Source: a virus
DNA length: 64,000 bases
Strand: one strand, 5' to 3'
Virus record (IMG/VR): IMGVR_UViG_3300045988_126262
Shown: positions 4,459 through 37,023 of the stretch, piece after piece
Numbering within the stretch: the first letter of the stretch is position 1
Layout of the letters: every line of letters starts with the position of its first letter
Notes under the pieces: model-generated
The model's input: only the letters and a program-made list of their open reading frames with translations
Told to the model about the DNA's origin: nothing
Databases searched by the model: none
Position numbers and translations under genes: made by a program

Positions 4459-4481
4459 CAAAAAGAGAAAGATACAATATA

Positions 4482-5935: not shown

Positions 5936-6723
5936 AAGACAGCTTTTTGATTTATAAATCATTTTACAAACCCATATCGAGATTATCGGACAAACAACTG
6001 GGCAGGCTGTTTCGAGCAATATTCAAATATCAACTTGGCGAGGAGGTTACGGTAGAGGAGGACATTGAAATGGCATTTGAGTTTTTCAAGAATCAATTCG
6101 AGATAGATGAACTCAAATATCAGGGCATTGTCGAGAGAAACCGGAACAACGGGCGTAAAGGAGGTAATGACAAAAACTCTGAAACGGTTAAATCAAAGTC
6201 CAGTGGGAGCCAAACGATCCACTCGACCCCAAATAACCCAGTGGGAGCCAAACGAGCCAGTGGGGGCTTAAATGATAATGATAATGAAAATGATAATGAT
6301 TTAAAAGAAACTTCTCTATCGAGAAGCAAAGAAAAAGAAGAAGATTTTGGCAAAGACGTTGACAAGCCACTGACAGAACTGCGTGAAGAACTACTCTCAA
6401 ATCAAACGTGGATAGAAACGCTATCGATGAACAACCACATTGACGAGAACGAATCGAGGTTATATATCGAGGCATATATCCGTAAACTTCAAAACGAGGG
6501 TATTTCAAGAAAAAGCGTCAGCGATGCACAACAACACTTTGCCCGCTGGTTAAGAATCGAACTAAAACGAGCACGAGATGAGCAATCCGGAATCCATCAA
6601 AAACCTAATTCCAAGACCAAACAGGAGCGATATGCAGAGTTTGCAGAAGCCATCGCCACCAAGCTGGCAGCGGGAGATACTGGCAACCTACAAGACGGGG
6701 GAGAATCTGCTCTGCCTTTTTAG
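5932..6723 (+). CDS. putative replication-organiser-like protein
   Basis: 263 aa. The N-terminus FLIYKSFYKPISRLSDKQLGRLFRAIFKY resembles phage replication/DnaD-type organisers. The family assignment is not verified. A low-complexity linker holds the nucleotide repeats listed separately. Confidence 0.5.
   Translation: MKDSFLIYKSFYKPISRLSDKQLGRLFRAIFKYQLGEEVTVEEDIEMAFEFFKNQFEIDELKYQGIVERNRNNGRKGGNDKNSETVKSKSSGSQTIHSTPNNPVGAKRASGGLNDNDNENDNDLKETSLSRSKEKEEDFGKDVDKPLTELREELLSNQTWIETLSMNNHIDENESRLYIEAYIRKLQNEGISRKSVSDAQQHFARWLRIELKRARDEQSGIHQKPNSKTKQERYAEFAEAIATKLAAGDTGNLQDGGESALPF
6200..6310. repeat. iteron-like 18-bp direct repeats followed by a (GATAAT)n AT-rich stretch; candidate origin
   Basis: CCAGTGGGAGCCAAACGA occurs at 6200-6217 and 6238-6255, with a partial third copy CCAGTGGG at 6257-6264. 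The stretch aatgataatgataatgaaaatgataatgattt follows at 6268-6310. Confidence 0.45.
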
Positions 6724-7228
6724 CCCAGACAATCAAAGCCGCTATTGCCAGAGCCTCGAACGCTGCTTTATCGGCAAGGCTCCGAGCATAGCCCGTGTAT
6801 CGAGGACATTCGGCAGTCACATCGCCGAGTCGTGGCTGGAAATACAGCTTCTCGACCTCGCCGAATTTTCGGGAGTCCGCAAGGACGGAATGACGGAAAA
6901 GGAGTATGAGGAGATAGCCCGTATCATCATCTCCGGCTATGGCGATTTCAAGCTCACCGAGTTCATGGTATTCTTTCAGCGGTTCAAGCAAGGGCTTTAC
7001 GGGACGTTCTACGGAGTTTTCGACCCTATGGTGATAACAAGGTCTCTTCGAGAGTTCAGAGCCGACAGAGAGAAACTATTGCGGTTCTATGAGGACAAGA
7101 AAAGGCAGGAGGAAAAGGAACGGGAATGGGAACGAAGCAGAACCACCAGCCTCACCTTCGAGGAATGGGAAGAGCTCAAATGGCTGTTTAACATGGGATA
7201 TGAAATGAATGATTTGAAGCAAAATTAA
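6632..7228 (+). CDS. hypothetical protein, replication-module associated; start uncertain
   Basis: The track ORF 6578..7228 lies in the +1 frame and overlaps the previous gene. ATG candidates are at 6578 and 6632, and there is no ATG just after 6723. Confidence 0.5.
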   Translation: MQSLQKPSPPSWQREILATYKTGENLLCLFSPDNQSRYCQSLERCFIGKAPSIARVSRTFGSHIAESWLEIQLLDLAEFSGVRKDGMTEKEYEEIARIIISGYGDFKLTEFMVFFQRFKQGLYGTFYGVFDPMVITRSLREFRADREKLLRFYEDKKRQEEKEREWERSRTTSLTFEEWEELKWLFNMGYEMNDLKQN

Positions 7229-7243
7229 GAAAGGAGAAATGAC

Positions 7244-7546
7244 ATGGAAATAACATTGATAGCGGGATTAGCCATTCTTTTTATTACGCTTGTAATATTT
7301 ATTTATCTTGACATAAGGAATGACCGAGTATATGTTTTCTCGAAGCATATTATCAACTGTTCCCATGAAGAAGTTCAGCGAGTTATCTATGAAGACATAG
7401 ACAGAGCTAAGCAACTATATAGCCGATTAGACGAGCTATACAATAGGAATAGCTACGACGAAATGCTTTACAGCATAAGGCCTCTCAAAGTCAAATATTG
7501 GTTCACCGAGGAGGAAATAAAAACTTTTAATCTCAGTGACTTATGA
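7244..7546 (+). CDS. small membrane-anchored protein (100 aa)
   Basis: N-terminal hydrophobic helix ITLIAGLAILFITLVIFIYL. GAAAGGAGA lies upstream of the ATG. Confidence 0.6.
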   Translation: MEITLIAGLAILFITLVIFIYLDIRNDRVYVFSKHIINCSHEEVQRVIYEDIDRAKQLYSRLDELYNRNSYDEMLYSIRPLKVKYWFTEEEIKTFNLSDL

Positions 7547-7669
7547 GGATAGGGTTGTTAGATGTAGATCATACAGTAATTAGGCTACGGGTAAGACTAT
7601 TCGAGACTGCCGTGTACTGTCCAAATTATTAAAACAAATTGAGAATTACAGCAAAAAGGAAAGTTAAGT

Positions 7670-8425
7670 ATGAAAGACATAGAGCTTTACAACGACTCAT
7701 TCCAGAATTATAAAGTCTATGGTCTGCCAAAAGCGCAGCTGATTATAGCAGATGTGCCGTATAATTTGGCGAATAACGCCTACGCCAGCAACCCCGCATG
7801 GTATATCGACGGAGACAACAAGAACGGCGAGAGCGCATTGGCAGGCAAACAATTCTTCTCGTCCGACAGCGAGTTTCGTCCGGCCGAGTTCATGCACTTC
7901 TGTTCAAAAATGCTCGTGAAAGAGCCGAAAGAAGCTGGCAAATCCCCCTGCATGATACTGTTTTGCGAGTACGAACAGCAATTCAAATTCATAGAGTTAG
8001 GACGCAAATACGGGTTAAATCACTACATACCGCTGGTTTTCCGCAAGGACTTCTCTGCGCAAGTGTTGAAAGCAAACATGAAGGTCGTCGGCAACTGCGA
8101 ATACGGCCTTATCCTTTATCGGGACAAGTTGCCCAAATTCAACAACAACGGGAGAATGATTTTCAACTGCTTCGACTGGGTGAGGGACAACACCACGCCC
8201 AAATGCCACCCTTGCCAGAAACCTGTCCCGCTCCTCAAACGGTTGATAGAGATATTCACGGACAAGGGCGATGTTGTCATCGACCCGTGCGCAGGAAGCG
8301 GCACAACCCTGTATGCGGCGGCCTCATTGGGAAGAAAGGCATATGGTTTCGAGGTCAACAAACAGTTCTATAACGACGCAAATGAAAAGGTCTTGAAAAG
8401 AATACAAGTCAGTTTATTTCAATAA
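7670..8425 (+). CDS. DNA methyltransferase, beta-class (N6-adenine or N4-cytosine)
   Basis: 251 aa. Motif IV-like IIADVPYN lies near the N-terminus and motif I VIDPCAGSGTT near the C-terminus, which is the beta-class motif order. Confidence 0.8.
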   Translation: MKDIELYNDSFQNYKVYGLPKAQLIIADVPYNLANNAYASNPAWYIDGDNKNGESALAGKQFFSSDSEFRPAEFMHFCSKMLVKEPKEAGKSPCMILFCEYEQQFKFIELGRKYGLNHYIPLVFRKDFSAQVLKANMKVVGNCEYGLILYRDKLPKFNNNGRMIFNCFDWVRDNTTPKCHPCQKPVPLLKRLIEIFTDKGDVVIDPCAGSGTTLYAAASLGRKAYGFEVNKQFYNDANEKVLKRIQVSLFQ

Positions 8426-15043: not shown

Positions 15044-15826
15044 ATGCGAAACATGCCTATGGACGAAATTAAAATTTTTGAGAATGAGCAATTCGGAAAA
15101 GTAAGAATTGCAATGAGTGAGAGTAACGAGCCATTGTTTTGCTTGGCAGATGTGTGCAGTATTATAGGCATTACTAACGCAAGAAATGTCAGGTCAAGAC
15201 TTGAAGAAGATGATGTCCGCCAAATGGACACCATAGATTCGTTAGGTAGAAATCAACAAGTTACATTTATAACAGAAAGCGGTTTATATGATGTGATAAT
15301 TCGTAGTGACAGCGAAAAAGCAAAGCCGTTTCGCAAATGGGTGACAAGTGAAGTTCTCCCTTCTATCCGAAAACATGGCGTATACCTGACAAACGAAACA
15401 CTTGAAAAGGCTCTTTTATCTCCAGATTATTTAATTAAACTTGCTACCCAAATTAAAGAAGAACGCCAAAAGCGCATTGAAGCGGAAAAAAAAGTAGCTG
15501 AAGCCGCACCGTCAGTTGCATTTACGAATGCGGTTCAATCTTCTAATACTTCTTGCTTGATTGGAGAACTTGCTAAATTAATTGCTCAGAACGGTTATCC
15601 AATCGGAGAAAAGCGGTTATTCGCATGGCTGCGTGAAAACGGATATCTTGGGAAACATGGTGAACGGTACAATATCCCCAATCAGCAATATATTGAACAA
15701 GGATTATTTGAGTTGAAAAAAGGAGTACGGTCTGGTAATGGTGGCGTATTACATACCACTATAACACCGAAAATAACCGGAAAAGGACAAGTATATTTTG
15801 TAAACAAATTCCTTAGAAATCAATAA
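15044..15826 (+). CDS. Bro-N / KilAC-domain phage antirepressor
   Basis: 260 aa. Bro-N block FGKVRIAM..EPLFCLADVC...ESGLYDVIIRSDSEKAKPFRKWVTSEVLPSIRKHG. C-terminal KilAC-like LIGELAKLIAQNGYPIGEKRLFAWLRENGYL. Confidence 0.8.
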   Translation: MRNMPMDEIKIFENEQFGKVRIAMSESNEPLFCLADVCSIIGITNARNVRSRLEEDDVRQMDTIDSLGRNQQVTFITESGLYDVIIRSDSEKAKPFRKWVTSEVLPSIRKHGVYLTNETLEKALLSPDYLIKLATQIKEERQKRIEAEKKVAEAAPSVAFTNAVQSSNTSCLIGELAKLIAQNGYPIGEKRLFAWLRENGYLGKHGERYNIPNQQYIEQGLFELKKGVRSGNGGVLHTTITPKITGKGQVYFVNKFLRNQ

Positions 15827-15867
15827 TAAATACACAGTGTGAAGATGCACTGCACAATTATACAATC

Positions 15868-17274
15868 ATGGACGAAATAACCGCTATATTAAACAGTGCC
15901 CGACCCGTTGATAATATTATCAATGACTTAAAAAGAAAATCCGTTTGTGTTCCTTCATGGGAATTTCTTATTAAAGCGTATGAACCATCATTCCATGAAA
16001 TAGCCAAAGATACTATAACACGAAAAGATAAAATACGCAAAGACGGGACAAAAGAAGAAGCATCACGCATTTACATTGGCCTTGAAAAGCTGCTTACAAA
16101 GCGTATGACTGAGTTCATGTTTGCCATTCCTGTAAAACGTATCTACCACAACACAGAAGGATTTGAAGTCCGCCAACAGATAGCAAAGGCTATAGAGGCA
16201 ATTTACAAGTATGCCCGAATCGATACAGAAAATATTAAACGTGCAAATGCGTATTTCGCCTCATGCGAAATTTTCACAATTTGGTACGTAGTAGAAAAGA
16301 CCAATACATTATATGGTTTTAATAGTAAGTATAAGCTAAAATGCAAAACATACTCGCCAATGGAGGGAGTAAAACTATATCCATTGATCGACGAGCTTGA
16401 CGATATGCTTGCAATGTCCTTTGAATACACCAAAAGGGTAAAGGACGAAGTAATTACTTATTTTGAGACATACACATCGGACAAACATTATAAATGGAAA
16501 CAAAATGGTAAAGGTTGGGAACCTGTCGGAACTGTTGAACAAATACGATTAATGAAAATACCCGGTGCATACGCATTTAGACCTGTACCTATATACCACG
16601 GATTAACTCGTATTCGCAAAGAATTGGAATATACACTTTCTCGTAACTCCGACGTGATTGCCTATAATTCAGCACCAATTTTGAAAATAGCCGGTGGTAT
16701 AAAAGGTGGAGAAGATAAAGGAGAAAGCCGTAGAGTTTACCGTGTGGAATATAATGGAGACGTATCGTATGTATCATGGTCGCAATCTATCGAAGCATTG
16801 AAGTATCATGTGGAAACCCTGCTTAAACTCTATTGGATGCAATCGCAGATGCCGGACGTTTCTTTTGACAACATGAAGTCTTTGGGGAACATAGGTTACG
16901 ATGCCAGACAAATGCTTTTGACCGACGCACACTTAAAGGTTGGAGACGAAAGCGGCTCATGGATTGAGCTTTTCGAACGTGAGGCAAGTGTCATCAAAGA
17001 ATTTTTAAAGCACATGAACACATCATGGGAAAGCGAAATTGATAATATAGAGATTGAACATATCATTACCCCCTTCATACAACAAGATGAAGATGCCACA
17101 GCAGATCGCTTATTGAAACTTAATGGCGGAAAACCAGTCATGTCTCAGCTTGAATCTATCCAACAGGCAGGTTATAGCAATGACGCGCAGGCTACATTGG
17201 AACAGATACGGCAAGAGGAGACTATCACTTCACAAAGCAGGGTCGACAATATATTTGGAGAGTCAGCAATTTAA
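15868..17274 (+). CDS. portal protein (SPP1 gp6-like)
   Basis: 468 aa. Size, charge pattern and its position immediately upstream of a MuF/gp7-type minor head gene support the call. It is the only portal-sized candidate in the window. Confidence 0.7.
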   Translation: MDEITAILNSARPVDNIINDLKRKSVCVPSWEFLIKAYEPSFHEIAKDTITRKDKIRKDGTKEEASRIYIGLEKLLTKRMTEFMFAIPVKRIYHNTEGFEVRQQIAKAIEAIYKYARIDTENIKRANAYFASCEIFTIWYVVEKTNTLYGFNSKYKLKCKTYSPMEGVKLYPLIDELDDMLAMSFEYTKRVKDEVITYFETYTSDKHYKWKQNGKGWEPVGTVEQIRLMKIPGAYAFRPVPIYHGLTRIRKELEYTLSRNSDVIAYNSAPILKIAGGIKGGEDKGESRRVYRVEYNGDVSYVSWSQSIEALKYHVETLLKLYWMQSQMPDVSFDNMKSLGNIGYDARQMLLTDAHLKVGDESGSWIELFEREASVIKEFLKHMNTSWESEIDNIEIEHIITPFIQQDEDATADRLLKLNGGKPVMSQLESIQQAGYSNDAQATLEQIRQEETITSQSRVDNIFGESAI

Positions 17275-17377
17275 TTAGATAATTATGGGAAATATCAGTT
17301 TTCAAGATAAAGGTGGCGTGGGTATATTGCTTATGCCGCTGGCTTAAAATATATCTTAAAGCTATAAAACGGCATGT

Positions 17378-20014
17378 ATGGCAAAGCCGAAAACTCCAAA
17401 TCAGAAACGCAAGTACGGCGAGCTGAATAAACGGCTCGCCAAATACGTCATGCTTGTGGAATCCATATACGAGGATTTGAATTTAGAGGCGGCTAAAATA
17501 GTCGGAATCACCGATTTTACCATTGATAGTGATAGGCCGTTTATGTGGTCGGATTATCCCCAAACAAGAAAACGGATAAGAGACTTACAAGAAAGGTTCG
17601 TTGAGGACATCGGAGCTGTAATATATAGTGGCACTTCTGAAGAATGGAAAAACAGCAACGAAGTTCAAGATCTTCTTGCCAACAAAGTATTGCAAACTTA
17701 TGGCGCAACCATAGGAAAGGAGAAATACGAAATCCTATACCAGCCCAATAATGATGCATTGAAAGCGTTTCAGCAACGTAAGGATAAAGGATTTACTATA
17801 TCAGATAAGTTGTGGAATCAATCGACTCTGTATAAGCAAGAACTTGAAGAAGCCATATCATGTGCCATTCAAAAAGGTACGAGTGCAATTACATTAAGTA
17901 AGCAAATATCCAAATATCTGCTCGATTTCCCACAACTACAAAAAGATTACAAGGAAAGGTTCGGAAAAGCATCACGGGCAATGGATTGTGAGTATCGTTC
18001 TATCCGTTTGGCTGCTTCCGAAATCAATATGGCATACCGCCAAGCTGAAAACCTTCGCTGGCAGCAGATGGACTTCGTGGTGGGATATGAAATCAAGTTG
18101 AGCAACAACCATACTTGCAACGGAAAGCCTTTCCAAGACATTTGCGATATACTAGCCGGGAAGTACCCGAAAGACTTCCAATGGACCGGTTGGCATCCCC
18201 TTTGTTATTCAGATGATAGCGAAGTTCTGACGAATAGAGGTTGGAAGTTATTCAAAGACGTTTTAGATGATGATTTGATATTATCGTTAAATCCAAATAC
18301 ACGTAATATAGAATGGGTTGAATTTATCGATAGACAATGTTTCTCATATTATGGAGAAATGATACATTTCTACAATCGCTCTCTTGATTGTCTCGTAACC
18401 CCAGAACACAATATGGTGTATTTGAATAAGAATGACGGAAAAATTAAGAATTGCCAAGCGAAAGAATACACGAAAGGTAAAGGCAGATTTTATAGAGGTT
18501 GCGAGTATGAATCAGGCGATGTCGAATTTTACCAAATTGATGATTTGATAATCCAATTTGATTTGTTCTGCGAATTTATGGGGTATTGGCTTTCTGACGG
18601 TAGTACAATGAGCAATTCGGGCGTCGTAATATCCCAGCAAGAGGGAGAAACGGCAAGAGATAAAATAGTTGATTGTATCAATCGTATGGGATTTGAACCA
18701 CATCTTGAAAAACAAAAGGTCGTATTTTATAACACTACCATACGCAACTATTTGAAGATTTTTGGACGGTGTATAAACAAATTTGTCCCGTATGTTATAA
18801 AGAATGCTTCAAAGAGGCAGATAAGGATTTTTCTTGATGCCTTTGTCCTTTGCGACGGTTATAAGCGTCCTTGCAGATCATTCATAGGGAATCACGGTAA
18901 TGAATTCAAGTCAGATAAAGATGAAATCATATACTTCACCACATCTGAACGCATGGCAGGAGACTTATCCGAACTAATACTGAAATCAGGACATAGGCCT
19001 TCTTTTTCTATAAATAAAGCAGGAGTATCACACAAAGCGAATGGTCCAATTATAAAGTCAAACTATGATTGTTACTCTATACGTGAATGCTATTCTGTCA
19101 CGTCTTCGGTATTTAATAAAGAGATACAGCATTATGATGGTCTTGTCTATGATTTGACACTGGAACGCAACCATATCATGTATATCCGCAGGAACGGAAA
19201 ATGCTTTTGGGGTAGCAATTGTCGCTGTTACAAGATACCCATTCTAAAAACCGAAGAAGAATTTTGGGAATGGGACGGTCGGAGTGAAGCCACGACAGCA
19301 AGCGTGAACGAAGTTAAAGACGTACCGGACGCTTTCAAAAAGTGGGTATTAGATAATCAAGAGCGCATCAGCACAGCAAAAAAACGTAATACTTTACCAT
19401 ACTTTTTGCGTGATAATAAATCCGTTTATCAGAAAATAACAGTTGAAAGTTCCATTTCGGAAATTGTAAAACGAGCATCATCAGTGGGAGATGAAGTACA
19501 GTCCATAGCAGAACGGATCGCAATAAAAAATGGTGGTTATGTTACGCCTATTAATTTCAAGAGTACAACTTCTATCACAAGAAAAGTCATCACAGAAGGT
19601 ATAACTCCATACGATATTAAAGATGCTGTAAGAACAACCATAATCGTTCCGAAGTCCCGAATAGAAGATGTGTTAGAAGAACTGTACAAAACGGAAGGCT
19701 TTTTACGCCTTAAAAGGCAAAAACCAGAATCATTCATGGGATATAGTGGAAACATCGTAAACATAAGAACCACAAATGGTCTTACTGCGGAAATACAGGT
19801 TAATACGGAACGTATGATTTTTGCAAAAGAAAGGCCGGAAGATGCGAAACGTATTCTTGGAAAAAAACGTTGGGAAGAAATACATAATGAGACAGGAATG
19901 GAAGGTGGTCTCGGACATAAATATTATGAGCAATGGCGCATACTCGATAAATCAAGTAATGAAGCACTAAAAATAGTAGAAAAATCTATTGAATATTATA
20001 GTCATTTCCGATAA
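17378..20014 (+). CDS. MuF/SPP1-gp7-type minor head protein, intein-containing, with a C-terminal RelA/SpoT-like domain
   Basis: 878 aa. The MuF hallmark HP(N/L)CRC is split as ...GWHPL|C(intein)N|CRCYKIPIL. The C-terminal ~160 aa carries RSH-like motifs in the expected order (see the separate feature and finding). Confidence 0.8.
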   Translation: MAKPKTPNQKRKYGELNKRLAKYVMLVESIYEDLNLEAAKIVGITDFTIDSDRPFMWSDYPQTRKRIRDLQERFVEDIGAVIYSGTSEEWKNSNEVQDLLANKVLQTYGATIGKEKYEILYQPNNDALKAFQQRKDKGFTISDKLWNQSTLYKQELEEAISCAIQKGTSAITLSKQISKYLLDFPQLQKDYKERFGKASRAMDCEYRSIRLAASEINMAYRQAENLRWQQMDFVVGYEIKLSNNHTCNGKPFQDICDILAGKYPKDFQWTGWHPLCYSDDSEVLTNRGWKLFKDVLDDDLILSLNPNTRNIEWVEFIDRQCFSYYGEMIHFYNRSLDCLVTPEHNMVYLNKNDGKIKNCQAKEYTKGKGRFYRGCEYESGDVEFYQIDDLIIQFDLFCEFMGYWLSDGSTMSNSGVVISQQEGETARDKIVDCINRMGFEPHLEKQKVVFYNTTIRNYLKIFGRCINKFVPYVIKNASKRQIRIFLDAFVLCDGYKRPCRSFIGNHGNEFKSDKDEIIYFTTSERMAGDLSELILKSGHRPSFSINKAGVSHKANGPIIKSNYDCYSIRECYSVTSSVFNKEIQHYDGLVYDLTLERNHIMYIRRNGKCFWGSNCRCYKIPILKTEEEFWEWDGRSEATTASVNEVKDVPDAFKKWVLDNQERISTAKKRNTLPYFLRDNKSVYQKITVESSISEIVKRASSVGDEVQSIAERIAIKNGGYVTPINFKSTTSITRKVITEGITPYDIKDAVRTTIIVPKSRIEDVLEELYKTEGFLRLKRQKPESFMGYSGNIVNIRTTNGLTAEIQVNTERMIFAKERPEDAKRILGKKRWEEIHNETGMEGGLGHKYYEQWRILDKSSNEALKIVEKSIEYYSHFR
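18203..19219 (+). mobile_element. intein (339 aa) with a LAGLIDADG homing endonuclease
   Basis: Block A CYSDDSEVLT, block B LVTPEHNM, two LAGLIDADG motifs (FMGYWLSDGS, IFLDAFVLCDGY), block F/G VYDLTLERNHIMY...FWGSN, followed by a +1 Cys. Excision would restore HPLCRC. Confidence 0.85.
19475..19957 (+). other. RelA/SpoT-homologue (toxSAS-like) nucleotidyltransferase-like domain of the MuF protein (aa ~700-860)
   Basis: FKSTTSITRK (KxxxSxxxK), KDAVRTTIIV, MGYSGNIVNI and AEIQVNTERM (compare EIQIRT) occur in the order of RSH synthetase motifs. Divergent and not verified. Confidence 0.45.
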
Positions 20015-20038
20015 AAATAATTATCTTTACATATAAAT

Positions 20039-20269
20039 ATGAACCCAAATATCCTACAAAAAAAATTACAAGCGGGTGAAGAAGTCTATATTTTAGACGA
20101 TTTTGAAGAATCTGCAATACGTCTTGTTCTTGAAAATGGAAAGACAAATGCTTTCATTAAGCACAAAGGAAGACGCAATGAAAAGGAAATATCACAGTCA
20201 AATGAAACCGTTTGCGAGATAATATTAGGAGGTATAGAAATACCCAAATCAGAATATGACATGTACTAA
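20039..20269 (+). CDS. hypothetical protein (76 aa)
   Basis: Track ORF between the MuF gene and the HD hydrolase gene, overlapping the latter by 14 nt. Confidence 0.5.
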   Translation: MNPNILQKKLQAGEEVYILDDFEESAIRLVLENGKTNAFIKHKGRRNEKEISQSNETVCEIILGGIEIPKSEYDMY

Positions 20270-20693
20270 AAATTCACTATTAGAAAAAGCCCTTCAAATC
20301 GCCGTCAAAGCCCATAGCGGACAAACCGATAAAGCTGGAGCAGCCTACATCTTCCACCCTATCCGTGTGGCAAACCGATGCAAAACAGATGAGGAGCGCA
20401 TAGTAGCTTTATTGCATGACACGATAGAAGATACCGAAGTTACTGCTGAATATTTACTAATGGAAGGCTTTCCTCATAATATTGTGGATGCTATACTTTC
20501 TGTCACTCGTAACGATGATGAGATCTATGACGATTTCATAAAACGGTGTAGATTGAATCCTATTGGAAGACAAGTAAAGCTGCACGACTTGGAGGACAAT
20601 TTGGACGTAACCCGTTTACCTCAAATAATAGAGGAAGACTTACCGAGATTGAACAAGTATCTTAAAGCGTATAAGTTTTTGCTGTCATTGTAG
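20256..20693 (+). CDS. HD-domain small alarmone hydrolase (SAH/Mesh1-like (p)ppGpp hydrolase family)
   Basis: 145 aa. ALQIAVKAHSGQTDKAGAAYIFHPIRVA ... ALLHDTIEDT is the RelA/SpoT hydrolase (HD_4) signature. Confidence 0.8.
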   Translation: MTCTKNSLLEKALQIAVKAHSGQTDKAGAAYIFHPIRVANRCKTDEERIVALLHDTIEDTEVTAEYLLMEGFPHNIVDAILSVTRNDDEIYDDFIKRCRLNPIGRQVKLHDLEDNLDVTRLPQIIEEDLPRLNKYLKAYKFLLSL

Positions 20694-20703
20694 AGAAACG
20701 GTC

Positions 20704-21033
20704 ATGAAGCAAATCAAGCTATCAAAACAGGAGAAGCAAGTGTTGCGTTTAATCAGCAGCGGGATTGTCTGCCCAAACACTTATCCGCACCATATATTCA
20801 TTTCGTGCGTAGACTCGCTGGAAAGATTAGGTCTTGTCAAAGGTCTATGGAACGAGGGGCATGAACTTGAAGATGTCCGCATAACGAAATATGGAAAAAT
20901 TTATCTTGCCACCAATCCTAACTTACGCAATCCCATAGACTGGAAATGGATTATAACTACCATCATCGCAGTAGCAAGTGCCATATTCGGCGCTATGGCC
21001 TTGTTTGTGGCTTGCTCGATAAAATACGGATAA
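20704..21033 (+). CDS. hypothetical protein with a C-terminal transmembrane helix
   Basis: 109 aa. C-terminal WKWIITTIIAVASAIFGAMALFVAC. Confidence 0.55.
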   Translation: MKQIKLSKQEKQVLRLISSGIVCPNTYPHHIFISCVDSLERLGLVKGLWNEGHELEDVRITKYGKIYLATNPNLRNPIDWKWIITTIIAVASAIFGAMALFVACSIKYG

Positions 21034-21113
21034 TTCCTTTGATTTAAAGAATTGATGTTTGTACAACTCTAATTTGGCATTTGTTTACACACGTCTATTT
21101 TGAGGCATATAAA

Positions 21114-21590: not shown

Positions 21591-22415
21591 ATGGCAGCCC
21601 AAATTCAAGTCCTAAAACAAACAGAATTGCTTGGACACCAATTCACAGTTTACGGAACAGCAGAAAATCCCATGTTCCTTGCAAGAGAGATTGCAGAATG
21701 CATCGATTACGACAAAACAAGCCTTAACAAATTGGTTGCATCTGTAGATGATGATGAAAAGGGTCGGAACATTATTCCGACCCCCGGTGGAAACCAACAA
21801 GTTTGGTTCCTAACCGAAGGTGGTTTATACGAAGTCCTTATGCAAAGCCGCAAGCCAATAGCCAAACAATTCAAGAAAGGGGTCAAACAAATCCTTCACG
21901 AAGTACGTACCACAGGCGGCTACATCTCCACCAAGCAAGAAGACACACCAGAAGAAATCATGGCACGTGCGCTAACCATTGCACAAGCCACTCTTGCCAA
22001 AAGAGAAGAACGATTAAAACAGCTCGAAGCTGAAAATGCCCAGAAACAAATTATCATCGAGAGAAAAGACGAGGAAATATCCATAAAGGACGATACTATA
22101 AAGGTCCTCGCCCCCAAAGGTAAATGTTACGATGAAATCATGTCGAGTGAAGGACTTGTGACGACAAACATGATAGCGGCATTCTTAGGTGTATCGGCTA
22201 TAAAACTGAACAAACTACTCTGTGAATGGGGAGTTCAATACAGACAATCTTCTGTTTACTTCCTCACGGCCAAATACCGCAGTAAAGGATTTACCAAACA
22301 TGTCCCCTACCCTTATATGGATAACGGAGTACAGAAATCAAGAGAACATATGTATTGGACCGAATCAGGCAGAAAGTTTGTCATTGAATTGTTCAATACC
22401 AAACTCTCGGCATAA
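21591..22415 (+). CDS. Bro-N / KilAC-domain antirepressor paralogue
   Basis: 274 aa. Bro-N block (LGHQFTVYG..NPMFLAREIAECI...EGGLYEVLMQSRKPIAKQFKKGVKQILHEVRTTGGY) and a C-terminal KilAC-like region. Confidence 0.8.
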   Translation: MAAQIQVLKQTELLGHQFTVYGTAENPMFLAREIAECIDYDKTSLNKLVASVDDDEKGRNIIPTPGGNQQVWFLTEGGLYEVLMQSRKPIAKQFKKGVKQILHEVRTTGGYISTKQEDTPEEIMARALTIAQATLAKREERLKQLEAENAQKQIIIERKDEEISIKDDTIKVLAPKGKCYDEIMSSEGLVTTNMIAAFLGVSAIKLNKLLCEWGVQYRQSSVYFLTAKYRSKGFTKHVPYPYMDNGVQKSREHMYWTESGRKFVIELFNTKLSA

Positions 22416-23086: not shown

Positions 23087-23118
23087 TTTGCTAATTTGGA
23101 AACAAATTATTATCTTTG
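23087..23118 (+). promoter_or_regulatory. Bacteroidota-type promoter for the toxin-antitoxin pair
   Basis: TTTG at 23087-23090, a 20-nt spacer, and TATCTTTG (TAnnTTTG) at 23111-23118, 21 nt before the ATG at 23139. Confidence 0.55.
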
Positions 23119-23138
23119 TAAATATAACAAGAAACGAT

Positions 23139-23480
23139 ATGGCCGGGCATACGATAACCATAATACTAAGCGATGAGGCGAACAGTTTTGTAAGGCAGCA
23201 GCCATTCAAGGCACAGCAGAAGATAGCGTATAATATTCGTAGAGTGCAGAGTGGTCTAATAGAAAAGGACGTTTTCAAGAAATTGGAAAACTCTGATATA
23301 TGGGAGTTACGGACGCTTTTCAACGGAATTTGTTACCGTCTGTTTGCTTTCTGGGACACCAAGAAAGGGGCTTTGGTAGTGGTTACTCACGGGATAGTGA
23401 AAAAGACGCAGAAAACCCCTAAAAAGGAGATAGAAAAGGCAGAGAGAATAAGGAAAGAATATTTTAATGATAAAAAGTAA
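23139..23480 (+). CDS. Gp49/DUF891 (RelE/HigB-superfamily) toxin-like protein
   Basis: 113 aa from the internal ATG. IWELRTLFNGICYRLFAFWDTKKGALVVVTHGIVKKTQKTPKKEIEKAERIRKEYF is typical of Gp49-like killer proteins. Confidence 0.7.
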   Translation: MAGHTITIILSDEANSFVRQQPFKAQQKIAYNIRRVQSGLIEKDVFKKLENSDIWELRTLFNGICYRLFAFWDTKKGALVVVTHGIVKKTQKTPKKEIEKAERIRKEYFNDKK

Positions 23481-23485
23481 CAGAT

Positions 23486-23818
23486 ATGGCAAAGATGAAT
23501 TTCACACCAGCAGACAAATTGATAGATGATGTATGGGGAAAGGTGGGCACTCCCGAAAGGGACGCTATGGAAGCTCAACTCAAAGATGATTTGCAGGCTT
23601 ATTACATTGGAGAGGCTATCAAGGCAGAAAGGCTCAAACAGAACCTCACACAGGAGGAATTAGGCAAAAAAGTAGGCGTGAAACGCTCTCAAATTTGTAA
23701 GTTGGAGAGCGGTAAGTGTATAATAACACTTCCTACTATGAGCAAAGTTTTTAAGGCTTTGGGAATTACAACGGCCACCCTTGATTTGGGAATAGGCGGA
23801 AAGGTTGCTTTGTGGTAA
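23486..23818 (+). CDS. XRE-family HTH antitoxin-like protein (HigA-like)
   Basis: 110 aa. HTH segment LTQEELGKKVGVKRSQICKLESGK. Starts 5 nt after the toxin-like gene. Confidence 0.7.
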   Translation: MAKMNFTPADKLIDDVWGKVGTPERDAMEAQLKDDLQAYYIGEAIKAERLKQNLTQEELGKKVGVKRSQICKLESGKCIITLPTMSKVFKALGITTATLDLGIGGKVALW

Positions 23819-23980: not shown

Positions 23981-24742
23981 CTATCCTACAATCGAGAGAT
24001 ACCGGCTTAAAGATTCTATTTCAGCCCGTATAACGACCTTTTGGAACTCTGCCGGATTGTTCTCCGTATGAGAGGCTTCCAGTGCCTTGTAATAGCTTAT
24101 TTTGTCCTCGTTGCTGCCTTTGAGATTTACCAGTGTATAACCGTTGCGGAGTAAGTATAGATTCATCAGAAGCCGAGATGTACGCCCGTTCCCGTCTATG
24201 AACGGGTGTATTCGTACCAACTCATCATGAAGATAAGCCGCAATGAGCACCGGGTGAATGCCCTGCTCCTCCATTCCGGAAAACCTTGTCATAAAAGCCT
24301 CCATTTGTGGTTGTATCAAATACGGCTGTGGAGGGACATGTGTACTTCCCGAAATCATAACAGGCACGCCCCGATAACGTCCGGCATTCTCTCTGTCTAT
24401 GCCATGTAGCACAATAGCGTGTATTTCCTTGATTGTGCGCTCCGATATTTCCATACCTCCCTTTGCAAAGTCCTTTATGTAGTCTATCGCTTCAACGTGG
24501 TTAATCGCTTCAAGGTGTTCCCGCATTGACTTTCCGGCGATAGTAACCCCCTCGTTGACTACTAACTCCGTTTCTTGCAGTGTGAGCGTATTTCCCTCGA
24601 TCCGGTTGCTTTCATAGGTGTATTCAATGGCAAACGCATTCTCTATCTTTTGCAGGGCATCCGGTGGTAATGGGCGCAGCCCCAACAAACGAGCTTTCAA
24701 CGTGTCGCATTGAAGTAATAGCTTTGTTATTTCCTCGTTCAT
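23981..24742 (-). CDS. Fic-family protein (class II, N-terminal inhibitory helix)
   Basis: 253 aa. Active-site motif HPFIDGNGRTSR. Upstream SNRIEG fits the (S/T)xxxE(G/N) inhibitory motif. Confidence 0.85.
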   Translation of the reverse strand: MNEEITKLLLQCDTLKARLLGLRPLPPDALQKIENAFAIEYTYESNRIEGNTLTLQETELVVNEGVTIAGKSMREHLEAINHVEAIDYIKDFAKGGMEISERTIKEIHAIVLHGIDRENAGRYRGVPVMISGSTHVPPQPYLIQPQMEAFMTRFSGMEEQGIHPVLIAAYLHDELVRIHPFIDGNGRTSRLLMNLYLLRNGYTLVNLKGSNEDKISYYKALEASHTENNPAEFQKVVIRAEIESLSRYLSIVG

Positions 24743-29865: not shown

Positions 29866-29938
29866 GGTTGAATGGCGAAGTGATTAACGCAACGGTCTGC
29901 AAAACCGTTATTCGTGGGTTTGAATCCCACTTCAACCT
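29866..29938 (+). tRNA. tRNA-Cys (GCA)
   Basis: Acceptor GGTTGAA/TTCAACC. Anticodon arm ACGGT-CTGCAAA-ACCGT. T arm GTGGG-TTTGAAT-CCCAC. Discriminator U73, as expected for tRNA-Cys. Confidence 0.9.
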
Positions 29939-29994
29939 CAGAGGACCGAAGTACAAGGAAGGGCAGTGGAAATTCTGTGCAGGCTGCCCATATT

Positions 29995-30064
29995 GCGGAA
30001 ATAGCTCATCGGCAGAGCGTTGGCATTCCAACCAAAGAGTGGGGTTCGATTCCCTGTTTCCGCT
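29995..30064 (+). tRNA. tRNA-Gly(UCC)-like gene with an 8-nt anticodon loop
   Basis: Acceptor GCGGAAA/TTTCCGC with G1-C72, C2-G71, G3-C70 and U73. D arm GCTC-ATCGGCA-GAGC. T loop TTCGATT. The anticodon stem is only TTGG/CCAA around CATTCCAA, which is CUUCCAA plus one extra A. Confidence 0.6.
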
Positions 30065-30287
30065 CAACCCTTATAGTAGCGATAAGCAAAAGCAAGAACA
30101 TTAAAGCTTGTGCAGTTTACGGGGTGATAGAAATTGCTATCTGACACGACTGAAAGAAGCCGAAGAATTGCATAAGTGTTCTTGTAAGTAGCTTGAAGAA
30201 TGATTGAATTTGTGTTTAAGCCTGTCGGGAATACGCTCGACAGGCATTTAACGCAAAATGTATATGAAGTTATATACAACTCAGTAA

Positions 30288-31589
30288 ATGTTTACAGGAA
30301 CGACACCACCAGAAGTTAAATTGCTCCTTCAAGATTTGATGAGAGGAGTAAAAGGGAAAGATGTTTTTATCGGATGTTCAGGAAACTACACCACCGATAA
30401 AATCATGTCAGCGATGGGTTATACTGTACATTCAAACGATGTAAGCCTATATTCTAAATTGATAGCGGATTTACTGCTTGATACTAGCACAGAAGTAGAG
30501 TGTATTAATCCTGAATTAAAAAACGTTTTTGATACATGGGAAGAAACCAAATACAAAAAACTTGTTCAGGTTATGTTCGCTTTAAAAGTAGCGCAATTCC
30601 ATCAACGTAAGAATGATTATCAAGAAGAAATGTTCAACGCATTCATTGAACAATCTAAGATTTATTATGATAATACTATCAAGAAGCTAGAGAAAGGTGC
30701 GTTAGATTTTTCCATTCAAAGTTTTTACTACGGGGATTTTTTGGACTTCCTAAAAATGAAAAGAGGTAAAGGTGTGGGAATTAGTTTTCCACCGACTTAC
30801 AAAGGGGGATATGAAAAATTATTTAGTTATGTCGAAGAAAGTTTTAAATATGAACATGCACCCTATAATATATTCGATCCCAAAGAAGGAGGAGCTGTTT
30901 TTAAGGAACTGTTAGATAACGATGAAAATATCATTTATTCAGACAGATACTTTAATATATTGGAAGGGTACTTGGTCGGGAAAATAAGGCTTGGTTCAAA
31001 TAAAAATCCTCTATTTGCTTATTCAAGCCTACAAACGAATAACCATTATTACATTGAGCGAGATAAATGCGTAAAGCCTTCCCATATCCATATACTTCCG
31101 GTAGATTATCAATTTACAACCGACACAGTAATTACAGTTCGCCCATGTGCCGTTAATGACGTGAACTATTATAAGGCATTCTACATGGCAAACAAGGTCA
31201 ATTACACAACAGGCGGAGATTTTGGCCTTGTGTTCATGGCAGACGGTATGGCTTTTGGGTTTACATCATTCAGCAAGCAGTTATCCACATTGTCGCAGAT
31301 ATTTATGCAAAGCGATTTTGTGGTTAATTCTGAGACCCAGCGTTTGAGCAAATTGCTTATCATGCTGGTGAAATCCCACGATGTCCGGAGGTTGATAGCA
31401 CGGAAGATGTATAATTATTATGATGGAGTGAAGACTACTGTATATACCACCAGTCCTGTATCGATGAAATACAGGGGGGTATTCAACCTTGAGCGGAGAG
31501 ATGAAGGTAAATTGATATATTCTTCCATCTTTACAGAGAAATCATTAAACGAACTATATGCGCTATGGATAAGAAAGTACAAGAAGTAA
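30288..31589 (+). CDS. Dam-like (D12-class related) methyltransferase-like protein with an atypical motif IV
   Basis: 433 aa. VFIGCSGNYT (FxGxG-like), HSNDVS (ND motif) and ISFPPTY in place of DPPY. Inference only. Confidence 0.4.
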   Translation: MFTGTTPPEVKLLLQDLMRGVKGKDVFIGCSGNYTTDKIMSAMGYTVHSNDVSLYSKLIADLLLDTSTEVECINPELKNVFDTWEETKYKKLVQVMFALKVAQFHQRKNDYQEEMFNAFIEQSKIYYDNTIKKLEKGALDFSIQSFYYGDFLDFLKMKRGKGVGISFPPTYKGGYEKLFSYVEESFKYEHAPYNIFDPKEGGAVFKELLDNDENIIYSDRYFNILEGYLVGKIRLGSNKNPLFAYSSLQTNNHYYIERDKCVKPSHIHILPVDYQFTTDTVITVRPCAVNDVNYYKAFYMANKVNYTTGGDFGLVFMADGMAFGFTSFSKQLSTLSQIFMQSDFVVNSETQRLSKLLIMLVKSHDVRRLIARKMYNYYDGVKTTVYTTSPVSMKYRGVFNLERRDEGKLIYSSIFTEKSLNELYALWIRKYKK

Positions 31590-32329
31590 AAGACGTGCAT
31601 ATCATTCAGGAGAAATTAGATGAAGTAAACAATTTGATTGCTCCATATCAACTGGCATACGTCAGTCCAACCAAAGATTGTATCCCATTGGAAAAAAACG
31701 CCCATTATATGGAAAAGCAGACGCTTGACCGATTGACTACTAATGTAGCAGAAGATGGCTTTCTTTCTCAATTACCGTTTGCAATGAAACGGAATGACGG
31801 TAAATATCTTATTTTATCTGGGAATCATCGGTTAAAAGCGAGTATCAAAGCGAAACTTGAATATATCCTTATCCTCTATATTGACGAGGTGGATAAAGAC
31901 AAACAGATTGCTTATACATTATCACATAATGCTTTGGTAGGTAAGGATGACATGCAAATGCTCAAAGAAATATATTCGGAAATGCGTAGCATAGAATCAC
32001 GAGAATATTCAGGGTTAAACGGTATAAAGTTCATGGATACAGATAAAATACCGACTGTATCTATTAACGATGGGGATATTGAACTTACTGAAATGAAATT
32101 CTTGTTTACTGAAAGTAGGAGCAATAATGTCAAAAATGTGCTTGCAGAACTAGAAAAACAGAAATTATCAGAAGATTGTTCTATCGTCGTTGGCTCTTAT
32201 GAAGCTTTTATTAAAGTGGCTACCGAAGTGAAGAATAAATATAATATTAAGAGCAATACAGTCGCATTTGCACGAATGGTAGATATTTGTGAAACATATC
32301 TTAAGGATTTGGAAGAAAAGGAGGAATAG
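31565..32329 (+). CDS. ParB N-terminal-domain (nuclease-like) protein
   Basis: 254 aa. KYLILSGNHRLKASIKA fits the ParB/Srx GxxR motif. Lies immediately upstream of the terminase genes. Confidence 0.6.
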   Translation: MDKKVQEVKDVHIIQEKLDEVNNLIAPYQLAYVSPTKDCIPLEKNAHYMEKQTLDRLTTNVAEDGFLSQLPFAMKRNDGKYLILSGNHRLKASIKAKLEYILILYIDEVDKDKQIAYTLSHNALVGKDDMQMLKEIYSEMRSIESREYSGLNGIKFMDTDKIPTVSINDGDIELTEMKFLFTESRSNNVKNVLAELEKQKLSEDCSIVVGSYEAFIKVATEVKNKYNIKSNTVAFARMVDICETYLKDLEEKEE

Positions 32330-32330: not shown

Positions 32331-32843
32331 ATGTCGAGAAGAGGTAGGCCAAGAGATAAGTTGTCATTGTATGATAAATACATCAAAGGCAAGGAAGAGA
32401 TTATAAAATCTGACTGTCGAAACGGTGCAGATAATAAAGGGATTTGTAAACGATTGGGTATTGGGCTTACTACTTATAAAAGAATCCTTTCCCAATACCC
32501 AGAAGTACGCGATCTACTTAAGGAGAGCCGGCAAGAAGCTGACTTAAAGGTAGAAAGTGCATTGTATAAACGAGCCATCGGATATGATTACGAAGAAACA
32601 GTTACAGAAGTCAGGGTTGCTGAAGATGGGTCAGCGCAAACTACTGTTGTCAAAAAAACAAAGAAGCACGTTGCAGGAGATACTACTGCTCAAATATTTT
32701 GGCTTAAAAATAGAAAGCCTGATATATGGAGAGACAAGCAAGATGTAAACGTAAACAATGACGAATGGGTAGATGCTTTGAAATCTCTTACAGGTTCATA
32801 TAAGAATGACAACAAGCGAGGAAAAGAAGAAAATAATAAATGA
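32331..32843 (+). CDS. terS: terminase small subunit
   Basis: 170 aa. An HTH (ICKRLGIGLTTYKRIL) and the TTAQIFWLKNRKPDIWRDKQ block typical of phage TerS. Directly precedes TerL. Confidence 0.75.
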   Translation: MSRRGRPRDKLSLYDKYIKGKEEIIKSDCRNGADNKGICKRLGIGLTTYKRILSQYPEVRDLLKESRQEADLKVESALYKRAIGYDYEETVTEVRVAEDGSAQTTVVKKTKKHVAGDTTAQIFWLKNRKPDIWRDKQDVNVNNDEWVDALKSLTGSYKNDNKRGKEENNK

Positions 32844-35853: not shown

Positions 35854-35870
35854 GTTTAAACCTAAATGAA

Positions 35871-37004: not shown

Positions 37005-37023
37005 TGTAGAAAGGAGGTAAAAA

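Follow-up and report, generated by a model that had tools for sequence, protein, structure and literature searches.

Relation of the locus to described MuF toxin systems

RelA-like toxins carried on MuF proteins have been known since 2017 (PMC5576092). The proposal that the capsid takes up such toxins for injection comes from the same year (PMC5576092) and was raised again as a hypothesis in 2023 (PMC10083569). The module of Bacteroides caccae consists of Apk2 (BACCAC_01148), BcTis1, and Aph1 (PDB 7SMG) (Ahmad et al., PNAS 2023, PMC10083569). This system is toxic in E. coli and makes (p)ppApp; either immunity protein alone protects partly, whereas both together protect fully (PMC10083569). Aph1 is specific for (p)ppApp, and hydrolysis of (p)ppApp but not ppGpp was measured for this enzyme and for selected homologues (PMC10083569). 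Members from Streptococcus, Mannheimia, and Pasteurella have also been described (PMC12226406), and both (p)ppApp synthesis and toxicity in the absence of neutralization are documented for orthologues (PMC10083569, PMC12226406). For example, Streptococcus pneumoniae SPNA45 encodes MuF-Apk2, IapK, and Aph1 in the same three-gene architecture as the locus described below (Bartoli et al., 2023, cited in PMC12226406). The mechanism proposed for the SPNA45, Mannheimia, and Pasteurella systems (PMC12226406) is also the same, consisting of (p)ppApp synthesis, an active site–occluding immunity protein, and a universally cross-protecting hydrolase. These systems differ from the present locus in their distant sequences and in belonging to prophages of Bacillota and Pseudomonadota, and no intein is mentioned for them.

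[quoted passage not shown] The Bxa–Bsi–BAH system of Bacteroides stercoris shares a homologous Bacteroidales MuF N-terminus (phrog_16625 match) and the dual-immunity logic, with one protein that binds and an enzyme that undoes the toxin product (PMC11699363), but its toxin is an ADP-ribosyltransferase. Bxa is intein-less, as its PHROG profile runs without a break across the intein site. In FaRel–ATfaRel, a toxic (p)ppApp-producing small RSH is likewise neutralized by an adjacent alarmone hydrolase, but the pair is free-standing, with neither a structural-protein fusion nor a Tis1-type binder.

The window, which is the whole 64,000-nucleotide stretch of a virus record (IMGVR_UViG_3300045988_126262) that was analyzed, contains the three plus-strand ORFs reported in the initial annotation. 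The ORF list confirmed them at 17378–20014 (878 aa plus stop codon), 20039–20269 (76 aa), and 20256–20693 (145 aa). The first is one uninterrupted ORF and would encode a precursor made of a MuF N-extein, an intein, and a MuF C-part with a linker and an Apk2 toxin domain. Directly upstream lies a gene for an SPP1 gp6-type portal protein of 468 aa (15868–17274, plus strand; Pfam SPP1_portal, E value, 5.2e-27; phrog_64 portal, E value, 2.6e-45). The 76-aa ORF starts 24 nt past the stop codon of the MuF–toxin gene and overlaps the hydrolase gene by 14 nt. Many gut assemblies, among them Barnesiella intestinihominis, encode proteins 99–100% identical to the 878-aa ORF. Toxin–antitoxin-like morons are abundant around the locus, namely a Gp49/HTH_3 pair and a Fic gene.

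In a B. caccae-type locus (L010), whose Aph1 (P0148, named Bacteroides caccae) shares 100% identity with 7SMG, the portal gene, MuF-Apk2, the 75-aa gene, and Aph1 follow one another as in the window, with the same three protein families after the portal gene. The identities between the window and L010 were 72.9% for the spliced toxin protein, 65.3% for the immunity protein, which occupies the BcTis1 position in L010, and 82.5% for the hydrolase, and all catalytic and specificity motifs are common to both. The B. caccae-type MuF-Apk2 differs in being 538 aa long without an intein, with the junction WHPNDLCY versus WHPL-CRCY in the window. In addition, scaffold and capsid genes follow at once in the B. 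caccae-type phage, whereas approximately 15 kb of other genes separates aph1 from the scaffold-like and capsid genes in the window. By homology, the locus is assigned as an orthologue of the characterized Apk2–BcTis1–Aph1 module, and the three genes are a prophage copy of an already characterized system of toxin, blocking immunity protein, and (p)ppApp hydrolase.

The module is thus of a known kind and of modest significance. The initial interpretation is supported: it is right in substance, had been published before, and has gaps; packaging and injection of the toxin, which it had presented as the distinguishing feature, is the hypothesis cited above for MuF toxins. A predicted self-splicing intein interrupting the capsid-protein part is the sole unreported twist, and no mention of an intein was found among the accessible papers on MuF toxins.

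The predicted toxin domain and its two putative immunity genes

Residues 689–876 of the 878-aa ORF matched Tas1 residues 245–432 (PDB 6OX6; E value, 9.2e-28), the closest solved relative, and this sequence similarity is far beyond chance. The match confirmed the call of an RSH synthetase-like C-terminal domain, which is predicted to be an Apk2-type adenosine 3′-pyrophosphokinase, i.e., a (p)ppApp synthetase, at aa 689–878 (19442–20011, plus strand). The four RSH-like motifs noted previously are present at aa 727–736, 748–757, 787–796, and 804–813, and equivalent Tas1 motifs align to all of them (IKSRERAMQK, KDLARNTIIV, LGYSGVNSTM, and GEIQVNSPEM). As in Tas1, GYSG.. stands in place of GYxSxH and EIQVN in place of EIQIR; the Syn3 region reads GYSGNI in the window toxin versus GYSGVN in Tas1. 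The motifs GYSGNIVNI, AEIQVNT, and KDAVRTTIIV are identical in the B. caccae-type Apk2 of L010, with which the toxin domain shares 72.6% identity.

Pfam RelA_SpoT gave 14.4 bits against a cutoff of 27, and the by-eye RSH call of the initial annotation reached further than this model. On the window proteins themselves, RelA_SpoT, Tis1_ImmP, HD_4, and TIGR01641 all scored below their curated cutoffs. By homology, the C-terminal domain belongs with the toxic RSH synthetases of the Tas1/Apk type, and its Syn motifs are those of Apk rather than of RSH. Its substitutions had been suspected to signal a non-standard product, and this suspicion proved well founded, since Tas1 and B. caccae Apk2 carry the same substitutions and both make (p)ppApp experimentally (PMC10083569). 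The odd motifs are read as an Apk signature, and the predicted product is (p)ppApp.

The 76-aa ORF (20039–20269, plus strand) had been recorded as lying between the two genes, but its identity as a Tis1/IapK immunity protein was unrecognized. The protein matched Pfam Tis1_ImmP with an E value of 4.8e-4 and 20.6 bits (cutoff, 27), and the same family was matched by all 21 aligned members, i.e., the window protein and 20 relatives (best E value, 1.4e-7). Syntenic genes of 75–76 aa are present in L001, L002, and L005–L010. A Foldseek search of the 76-aa model against the PDB library found no solved Tis1-like structure. Family matches and synteny assign this ORF, directly downstream of the toxin, to the putative non-enzymatic immunity proteins of the Tis1/IapK family.

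The single-HD-domain protein of 145 aa (20256–20693, plus strand) matched PDB 7SMG, the "(p)ppApp hydrolase" Aph1, with an E value of 6e-76 and 83% identity over 7SMG residues 4–141, and phrog_990 with an E value of 2e-47. The catalytic residues H33, H53, D54, and D110 are conserved, and all six Aph signature residues listed in PMC10083569 (D24, R96, D116, R119, K133, and Y134) are kept. The earlier description as an alarmone hydrolase therefore holds, and the protein is assigned by homology to the Aph1 type.

The MuF head-protein part and its predicted intein

The 878-aa ORF matched phrog_7625 "head morphogenesis" (E value, 4.9e-89) in two stretches, and its N-terminal part also matched phrog_1657 and phrog_115 "minor head protein." The N-extein (aa 1–275; 17378–18202, plus strand), which is the larger MuF/SPP1 gp7-like part and ends ...GWHPL, on its own matched phrog_35295 (E value, 4.6e-63), phrog_7625 (E value, 4.5e-53), phrog_1657, and phrog_115, and weakly phrog_21401 "pilot protein for DNA ejection." In the spliced protein, a TIGR01641 phageSPP1_gp7 match spans the splice junction (aa 185–282; E value, 0.037, below cutoff); Pfam Phage_Mu_F gave no match to the MuF protein. 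The PHROG matches and the adjoining portal gene bear out the MuF/SPP1 gp7-type head protein of the initial annotation: an N-terminal head domain encoded beside a portal gene, as in the Apk2 class. The C-terminal toxin extension described there also stands, but the proposed layout of about 700 aa of MuF plus 160 extra residues gives way to a 275-aa N-extein, a 339-aa intein, a 74-aa MuF remainder and linker, and a toxin domain of approximately 190 aa. The intein, 339 of the 878 residues, had been overlooked.

The insert (aa 276–614; 18203–19219, plus strand) is predicted to be a class-1 intein with a LAGLIDADG homing endonuclease, and it splits the conserved MuF motif WHPx-CxCY. It is absent, with colinear flanks, in the 539-, 523-, and 538-aa orthologues of L001, L002, and L010, respectively, and blastn against L001 puts the breakpoints at 18204 and 19219. 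The C-extein begins (aa 615–688; 19220–19441, plus strand) with the +1 Cys and the remainder of the MuF motif (CRCYKIPILK...), followed by a linker to the toxin-swapping junction, and in intein-less homologues it directly continues the N-extein. Sequence comparison thus identifies the insert as an in-frame intein insertion.

The splicing residues are C276, T341-P-E-H344 (block B), N614, and +1 C615. On the plus strand, Cys1 is at 18203–18205, block B (TPEH) within 18392–18415, the LAGLIDADG motifs FMGYWLSDGS and FLDAFVLCDGY at 18566–18604 and 18821–18862, and blocks F/G, ending ...GSN, at 19145–19219. None of the splicing and endonuclease residues varies among 13 homologues of 62–83% identity, and the same holds for the acidic D132 and D218 (intein numbering) of the LAGLIDADG motifs. 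All homologues have Ser at the penultimate position, where His is usual, and "GSN" is invariant. Ser in place of the penultimate His is a known, less common intein variant.

PDB 6ZGQ, an intein, was matched at an E value of 2e-5 over residues 7–100, and in tblastn the insert aligned for the most part or entirely with phage TerL, portal, primase/helicase, and nucleotidyltransferase proteins that are described or annotated as intein hosts. In the AF2 model, the endonuclease part had a pLDDT of 83–97, and the Hint segments were of low confidence (pLDDT 27–50); the top Foldseek matches were the TliVMA intein (3e-12), PI-SceI, PI-PfuI, and I-DmoI. The model is consistent with an endonuclease fold carrying two LAGLIDADG motifs, and the conservation suggests that the intein is splicing-competent.

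Intein-less (538–539 aa) and mini-intein (687 aa) alleles exist. The intein occupied the same site in 68 of the 68 IMG/VR contigs found, where the splice junctions are kept, the +1 Cys is invariant or nearly so, and the C-termini are Apk2, ADP-ribosyltransferase-like, or other. An N-terminus plus intein 97–99% identical to that of the window is fused to other C-termini in P0062, P0064, and P0065, which part ways after VKDVPDAFKKW / TLPYFL; those of P0062 and P0065 are ADP-ribosyltransferases. Because one N-terminus carries interchangeable unrelated toxins, this behavior is that of a polymorphic toxin rather than of a toxin–antitoxin system.

Inteins have also been reported in a minor capsid protein of actinobacteriophages (IPR006528; bioRxiv 10.1101/2025.01.02.630785), where intein-containing and intein-free alleles are interleaved as they are here. 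The actinophage inteins differ in having non-canonical (e.g., antisense) homing endonucleases, with toxin fusion unmentioned, whereas the window intein has a canonical nested LAGLIDADG endonuclease and resides in Bacteroidales MuF polymorphic toxins. IPR006528 corresponds to the MuF/SPP1 gp7-type "phage head morphogenesis" domain.

Proposed mechanism and alternative explanations

Very likely, the locus is a polymorphic toxin module of a prophage in which an Apk2-type MuF toxin is accompanied by two immunity genes. Judging from orthologues of 73–83% identity with measured activities, the toxin domain would move pyrophosphate from ATP onto the 3′-OH of ATP, ADP, or AMP, and the resulting (p)ppApp synthesis would drain the adenine-nucleotide pool and stop growth. 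In the producing cell, the 76-aa protein would bind the toxin and occlude its active site, and the Aph1 hydrolase would turn (p)ppApp back into ATP, ADP, or AMP, as expected from the same orthologues. Splicing at Cys276, Asn614, and Cys615 would rebuild WHPL-CRCY and give a mature protein of 539 aa, while the LAGLIDADG endonuclease may spread the intein into intein-free MuF alleles during co-infection. We hypothesize that the mature MuF part, like SPP1 gp7, docks in a few copies at the portal inside the capsid and that the toxin enters the next host with the DNA or is released at lysis.

It is rather unlikely that the intein is more than a passenger and gates the fate of the toxin, with a possibly redox- or oxygen-responsive splicing that couples packaging versus release to the host condition. 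Under such gating, only the spliced protein would regain WHPx-CxCY for portal docking and packaging, and the unspliced or C-terminally cleaved precursor would either be stored in inert form or yield a free Apk2 fragment in the cytoplasm. Redox- or oxygen-responsive splicing is conceivable because both splice junctions have a Cys and the phage infects strict anaerobes. A role as a toxin-releasing HINT autoprotease ("releasing peptidase"), or as an intein co-opted for this purpose, in which C-terminal cleavage would free the 264-aa C-extein (linker and Apk2), is quite improbable. In its favor, polymorphic toxins repeatedly use HINT domains as processing peptidases (PMC3482391), the C-terminal extension follows the insert in all 68 IMG/VR loci and is a recognizable toxin domain in 54 of them, and the penultimate Ser and invariant "GSN" imply an atypical C-terminal chemistry. 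However, a HINT releasing peptidase lies directly before its toxin and cleaves without ligating, whereas this insert interrupts the conserved MuF motif and leaves 74 residues between itself and the toxin domain; orthologues that lack the intein show exact colinearity through the insertion site. A +1 Cys nucleophile is retained, the apparently intact homing endonuclease and the mini-intein allele are typical of a mobile intein, and the peptidases of MuF toxins according to Zhang et al. are papain-like, not HINT.

The polymorphic toxin module is also to be weighed against a classical toxSAS toxin–antitoxin or abortive-infection system (FaRel/CapRel-like) or a prophage addiction module that is neither virion-borne nor a released effector. 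The logic of a toxic (p)ppApp-making SAS with an adjacent SAH resembles that of FaRel–ATfaRel (PMC10083569, PMC12691689), and toxin–antitoxin-like morons lie nearby, but this reading is very doubtful: here the toxin is never a free-standing ORF as in FaRel/CapRel but the tail of a head protein encoded beside the portal gene, all loci examined have the synthetase domain at the C-terminal end of a head protein of 523 aa or more, the same N-terminus carries unrelated toxins, and the closest solved relative is a T6SS effector. That the domain is catalytically dead or instead yields (p)ppGpp, pyrophosphorylated tRNA, or some other product is extremely improbable. The very low RelA_SpoT score and the Syn3 difference from Tas1 would fit such a view, but the B. 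caccae-type Apk2 of L010 has identical motifs and that enzyme makes (p)ppApp (PMC10083569). The co-encoded hydrolase of the (p)ppApp-specific type keeps all six specificity residues, and every related locus examined retains both immunity genes.

Organization of the locus and its relation to the Apk2-Tis1-Aph1 system

A gene encoding an SPP1 gp6-type portal protein of 468 aa (15868-17274; Pfam E value, 5.2e-27; phrog_64) is followed by three co-directional genes, which encode the 878-aa protein (17378-20014), a 76-aa protein (20039-20269; start 24 nt past the preceding stop codon), and a 145-aa protein (20256-20693; 14-nt overlap with the 76-aa gene). The assignment of the 878-aa product as a MuF/SPP1 gp7-type minor head protein in the initial annotation was backed by matches to head-morphogenesis and minor-head-protein families of PHROGs, namely, phrog_7625 (E value, 4.9e-89), phrog_1657, and phrog_115. 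When the protein was searched in its predicted spliced form, no significant match to Phage_Mu_F or gp7 was obtained in Pfam and NCBIfam, and TIGR01641 was matched with an E value of only 0.037. The MuF assignment is based on PHROGs, synteny, and published statements on homologues. In PHROGs v4, phrog_7625 carries "head morphogenesis" as its sole annotation, and its 504-position profile aligns to the C-extein through position 494. The profile therefore takes in the Apk2 toxin domain, and routine annotation conceals the toxin.

The C-terminal part of the protein (aa 689-876) matched the toxin domain of Pseudomonas Tas1 (PDB 6OX6) with an E value of 9.2e-28, and this was the sole solved structure matched. 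The RSH synthetase-like motifs noted previously are present at aa 727-736, 748-757, 787-796, and 804-813, and each aligns with the matching motif of Tas1. Their departures from the canonical RelA/SpoT motifs, GYSG for GYxSxH and EIQVN for EIQIR, are common to Tas1, and such differences have been described as signatures that set (p)ppApp synthetases apart from those making (p)ppGpp (PMC12226406). On this domain, the generic Pfam RelA_SpoT model scored only 14.4 bits.

The 145-aa protein, proposed earlier to be an alarmone hydrolase of the HD type, indeed matched the "(p)ppApp hydrolase" Aph1 (PDB 7SMG; E value, 6e-76), with 83% identity to chain residues 4-141. The catalytic His/Asp residues are retained, as are all six positions reported to set Aph proteins apart (D24, R96, D116, R119, K133, and Y134). 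The 76-aa protein scored 20.6 bits against Pfam Tis1_ImmP, which is below the cut-off of 27; all 21 of its aligned family members matched this model (best E value, 1.4e-7), and several carry Tis1_ImmP in precomputed annotation. Its AF2 model was confident (pLDDT 87), but a Foldseek search of the PDB with this model returned nothing at E <= 0.001, with no Tis1-like chain turning up in the PDB copy used, and a profile search of PDB sequences gave no match.

The same arrangement has been described in a Bacteroides caccae prophage by Ahmad et al. (PMC10083569), in which BACCAC_01148, a MuF protein fused to a Tas1-like domain, was renamed Apk2, and BACCAC_01147 and BACCAC_01146 are BcTis1 and Aph1, respectively. 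B. caccae Apk2 is toxic in Escherichia coli and synthesizes (p)ppApp; each immunity protein alone gives partial protection and the two together give complete protection; and Aph1 hydrolyzes pApp, ppApp, and pppApp but not ppGpp (PMC10083569). The B. caccae-type locus (L010) was traced with the 7SMG sequence through a 100% identical protein named Bacteroides caccae (P0148). It shares 72.9, 65.3, and 82.5% identity with the window in the spliced MuF-Apk2, Tis1-like, and Aph1 proteins, respectively, and all toxin motifs of its Apk2 are identical to those of the window. Related modules have likewise been characterized in Streptococcus, Mannheimia, and Pasteurella (PMC12226406).

Based on these comparisons, the locus is assigned as another member of the Apk2-Tis1/IapK-Aph1 family, as shown at the sequence level by the gene order, the identity of the three protein families, and the conserved catalytic and specificity residues. 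The initial reading of a toxin paired with immunity was right, yet the system was already known, and the module alone adds little to a family for which structures and activity measurements are available. Packaging in the virion and injection, which had been highlighted as a difference from known systems, is likewise not new but the standing hypothesis of the family: a 2017 study catalogued RelA-like MuF toxins and proposed their loading into the head and delivery alongside DNA (PMC5576092).

By analogy with the characterized orthologues, the toxin would make (p)ppApp from ATP and deplete adenine nucleotides, the Tis1-like protein would obstruct the toxin active site, and Aph1 would break down the toxin product. 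The mature MuF part may tether the toxin to the portal, from which it would be ejected together with DNA; release at lysis would be the alternative.

An intein within the MuF domain

The 878-aa protein contains an intein, a feature overlooked in the initial annotation. Alignment with two MuF-Apk2 proteins, from Caecibacteroides pullorum (L001; 539 aa) and a Prevotella MAG (L002; 523 aa), revealed a single clean insertion of 339 residues (aa 276-614) between ...GWHPL and CRCYKIPIL.... At the DNA level, similarity to the C. pullorum locus stops at 18204 and picks up again at 19219. The first and last residues of the insert are Cys and Asn, respectively, and the C-extein starts with Cys. The insert carries a block B motif (TPEH), two LAGLIDADG motifs (FMGYWLSDGS and FLDAFVLCDGY), and the block F/G segment VYDLTLERNHIMYIRRNGKCFWGSN; its penultimate residue is Ser, as compared with the usual His. 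Neither the splice residues nor the two LAGLIDADG aspartates vary among 13 homologues with 62-83% identity, and the +1 Cys is almost invariant. By sequence, the splice and endonuclease motifs of the insertion are intact.

Comparisons with known inteins agreed with this identification. The N-terminal part of the insert matched the AceL NrdHF intein (PDB 6ZGQ; E value, 2e-5). In the AF2 model of the insert, the endonuclease core was predicted with pLDDT values of 83-97 and the Hint part poorly; the top Foldseek matches were the endonuclease-containing inteins TliVMA (3e-12), PI-SceI, and PI-PfuI, followed by I-DmoI. In tblastn searches, the insert aligned over most or all of its length within phage terminase, portal, primase/helicase, and nucleotidyltransferase genes, whose products are among the host proteins listed for actinophage inteins in a 2025 survey (10.1101/2025.01.02.630785).

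The predicted spliced product is 539 aa long, the length of the C. pullorum orthologue. On the spliced sequence, the weak match to the TIGR01641 gp7 model crosses the splice junction, which places the intein within the MuF domain at its conserved core, a location typical of inteins. According to general intein chemistry, the precursor would splice to yield the 539-aa MuF-Apk2, and the intein endonuclease would drive homing into intein-free alleles during co-infection.

We considered whether this intein was already contained in published MuF toxins. Bxa is an 869-aa protein with a "middle domain" at residues 323-620 (PMC11699363), but this domain was rejected as the intein, because the Bxa profile phrog_16625 aligns with the N-extein through position 303, resumes with the C-extein at position 305, and is thus contiguous across the intein site; the intein alone did not match phrog_16625. 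An intein in the published B. caccae Apk2 was also rejected, since the locus with the 7SMG-identical Aph1 encodes an intein-less protein of 538 aa. In a survey of polymorphic toxins, papain-like peptidases, not HINT, were assigned to MuF toxins (PMC3482391). Neither an intein nor a Hint domain is mentioned in the MuF-toxin literature surveyed, and a full-text literature search for "intein" together with "MuF" returned nothing relevant. IPR006528 is the MuF/gp7 head-morphogenesis domain. A 2025 preprint reported inteins with non-canonical endonucleases in actinobacteriophage minor capsid proteins of IPR006528 (10.1101/2025.01.02.630785), and MuF proteins as a host class are therefore not unprecedented. 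What is added here is a widespread and apparently unreported LAGLIDADG intein, which occupies the MuF domain in toxins of Bacteroidales phages and also has a mini-intein variant.

The intein has practical consequences, as Bacteroidales MuF toxins of the Apk2 and Bxa families get cloned and modelled as "full-length" proteins. Many natural alleles are precursors of 845-902 aa, the mature form of which is approximately 340 residues shorter, and the intein must be allowed for in domain maps, in AlphaFold models, and when the toxicity of a full-length protein is compared with that of the toxin domain. If MuF packaging requires splicing, the intein would also provide a handle on whether MuF toxins travel in the capsid.

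Alleles, distribution, and toxin cassettes

A contig scan with the toxin domain gave only four loci and served as a source of intein-less alleles, not as a survey. A prophage found on two contigs (L008 and L009) is 97-99% identical to the window at the nucleotide level over the portal gene, the two exteins, and the two immunity genes; its 687-aa MuF-Apk2 (6001-8064 in both contigs) holds a mini-intein of 148 aa at the site of the window intein. In place of the homing-endonuclease region (window 18421-19168), it has 175 unrelated nucleotides. An IMG/VR contig (L078) was grouped with these as a mini-intein case. In L008 and L009, the portal gene is also separated from the MuF gene by two small genes (116 and 120 aa) that are absent from the window. 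The B. caccae-type allele (L010:3146-4762) lacks an intein; at the insertion site, it has WHPNDLCY, compared with WHPL|CRCY in the window, with Asp where the +1 Cys would be. With such a junction, the B. caccae-type allele might resist the intein or be incapable of hosting it. In an intein-containing B. fragilis protein (P0074), the C-terminal junction is ...GSN|CMDY. The occurrence of full-length, mini-, and no-intein alleles at one site, in near-identical gut prophages, offers a tidy natural system for intein homing in gut phages.

In an IMG/VR scan, the intein matched 68 viral contigs with 37-100% identity. The N-terminal junction lies within the same motif, mostly GWHPx|C, in all 68, and the C-terminal ...GSN|C junction was readable in 66. 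The C-terminal part is of the Apk2 type in nine loci and of the P0065 or P0062 type, both proteins with ADP-ribosyltransferase Pfam domains, in 45; in the other 14, it is of another type, unassigned, truncated, or cut by the contig end. The N-terminus and intein of three homologous proteins (P0062, P0064, and P0065) are 97-99% identical to those of the window, but their C-termini are unrelated, diverging after VKDVPDAFKKW / TLPYFL. As judged from this divergence, the proteins show the pattern of classic polymorphic-toxin cassette swapping. With P0111 included, the shared N-terminus and intein are 77-99% identical and the C-termini differ. The alternative C-termini comprise two ADP-ribosyltransferase types and a further domain of approximately 260 aa. 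In the 686-aa forms (P0111; 690-aa ORF translations in L040 and L045-L048), a stop codon lies exactly at the start of the toxin cassette.

Genomic neighborhood

The window as a whole resembles a prophage of Bacteroidales. Many human-gut assemblies, including some named Barnesiella intestinihominis, encode proteins with 99-100% identity, and megablast of 15800-21100 against GenBank phages gave no match; the known occurrence of the element is in bacterial and metagenome assemblies and IMG/VR only. The gene order between 15868 and 38334 is unusual, with the portal, MuF-toxin, and immunity genes located approximately 12 kb upstream of the large terminase gene (32806-34347; phrog_2) and the scaffold-like and major capsid genes after the terminase (35832-38334). 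Unlike in the window, aph1 is immediately followed by the scaffold and capsid genes in the loci of the B. caccae type and of Caecibacteroides.

In the window, the intervening block contains accessory genes and tRNAs. The accessory cluster beside the toxin module includes two Bro-N/ANT antirepressor-like genes (15044-15826 and 21591-22415), a Gp49 (HigB-like) and HTH_3 pair (23088-23818), and a minus-strand Fic/DOC gene (23981-24742). The gene aph1 is followed by a 109-aa ORF (20704-21033), whose product has a hydrophobic segment at its C-terminus and gave only a sub-threshold DUF6486 match. A 109-aa gene occupies the same position in the mini-intein prophage (L008 and L009), and the position differs in L005-L007 (a SocA_Panacea-domain gene and a 150-aa gene), L001, and L010. 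A 433-aa protein (30288-31589) matched the Pfam families "Phage DNA Adenine Methylase-like domain 1" (E value, 3e-40) and "Phage GNAT-like domain" (E value, 8e-32); together with the ParB-like nuclease-domain protein encoded next (31565-32329), it may form a DNA-modification module. ARAGORN called four tRNA genes (29866-30065, 4374-4459, and 40506-40577), comprising Arg-tcg, Cys-gca, Gly-tcc, and a fourth call (29995-30065) with a two-base anticodon and no amino-acid identity assigned. The G + C content is 0.49-0.52 in 50001-54000 and 58001-62000, as compared with 0.34-0.44 elsewhere in the window, and these high-G + C stretches take in part of a 1130-aa ORF (48199-51591) and the ORFs after it.
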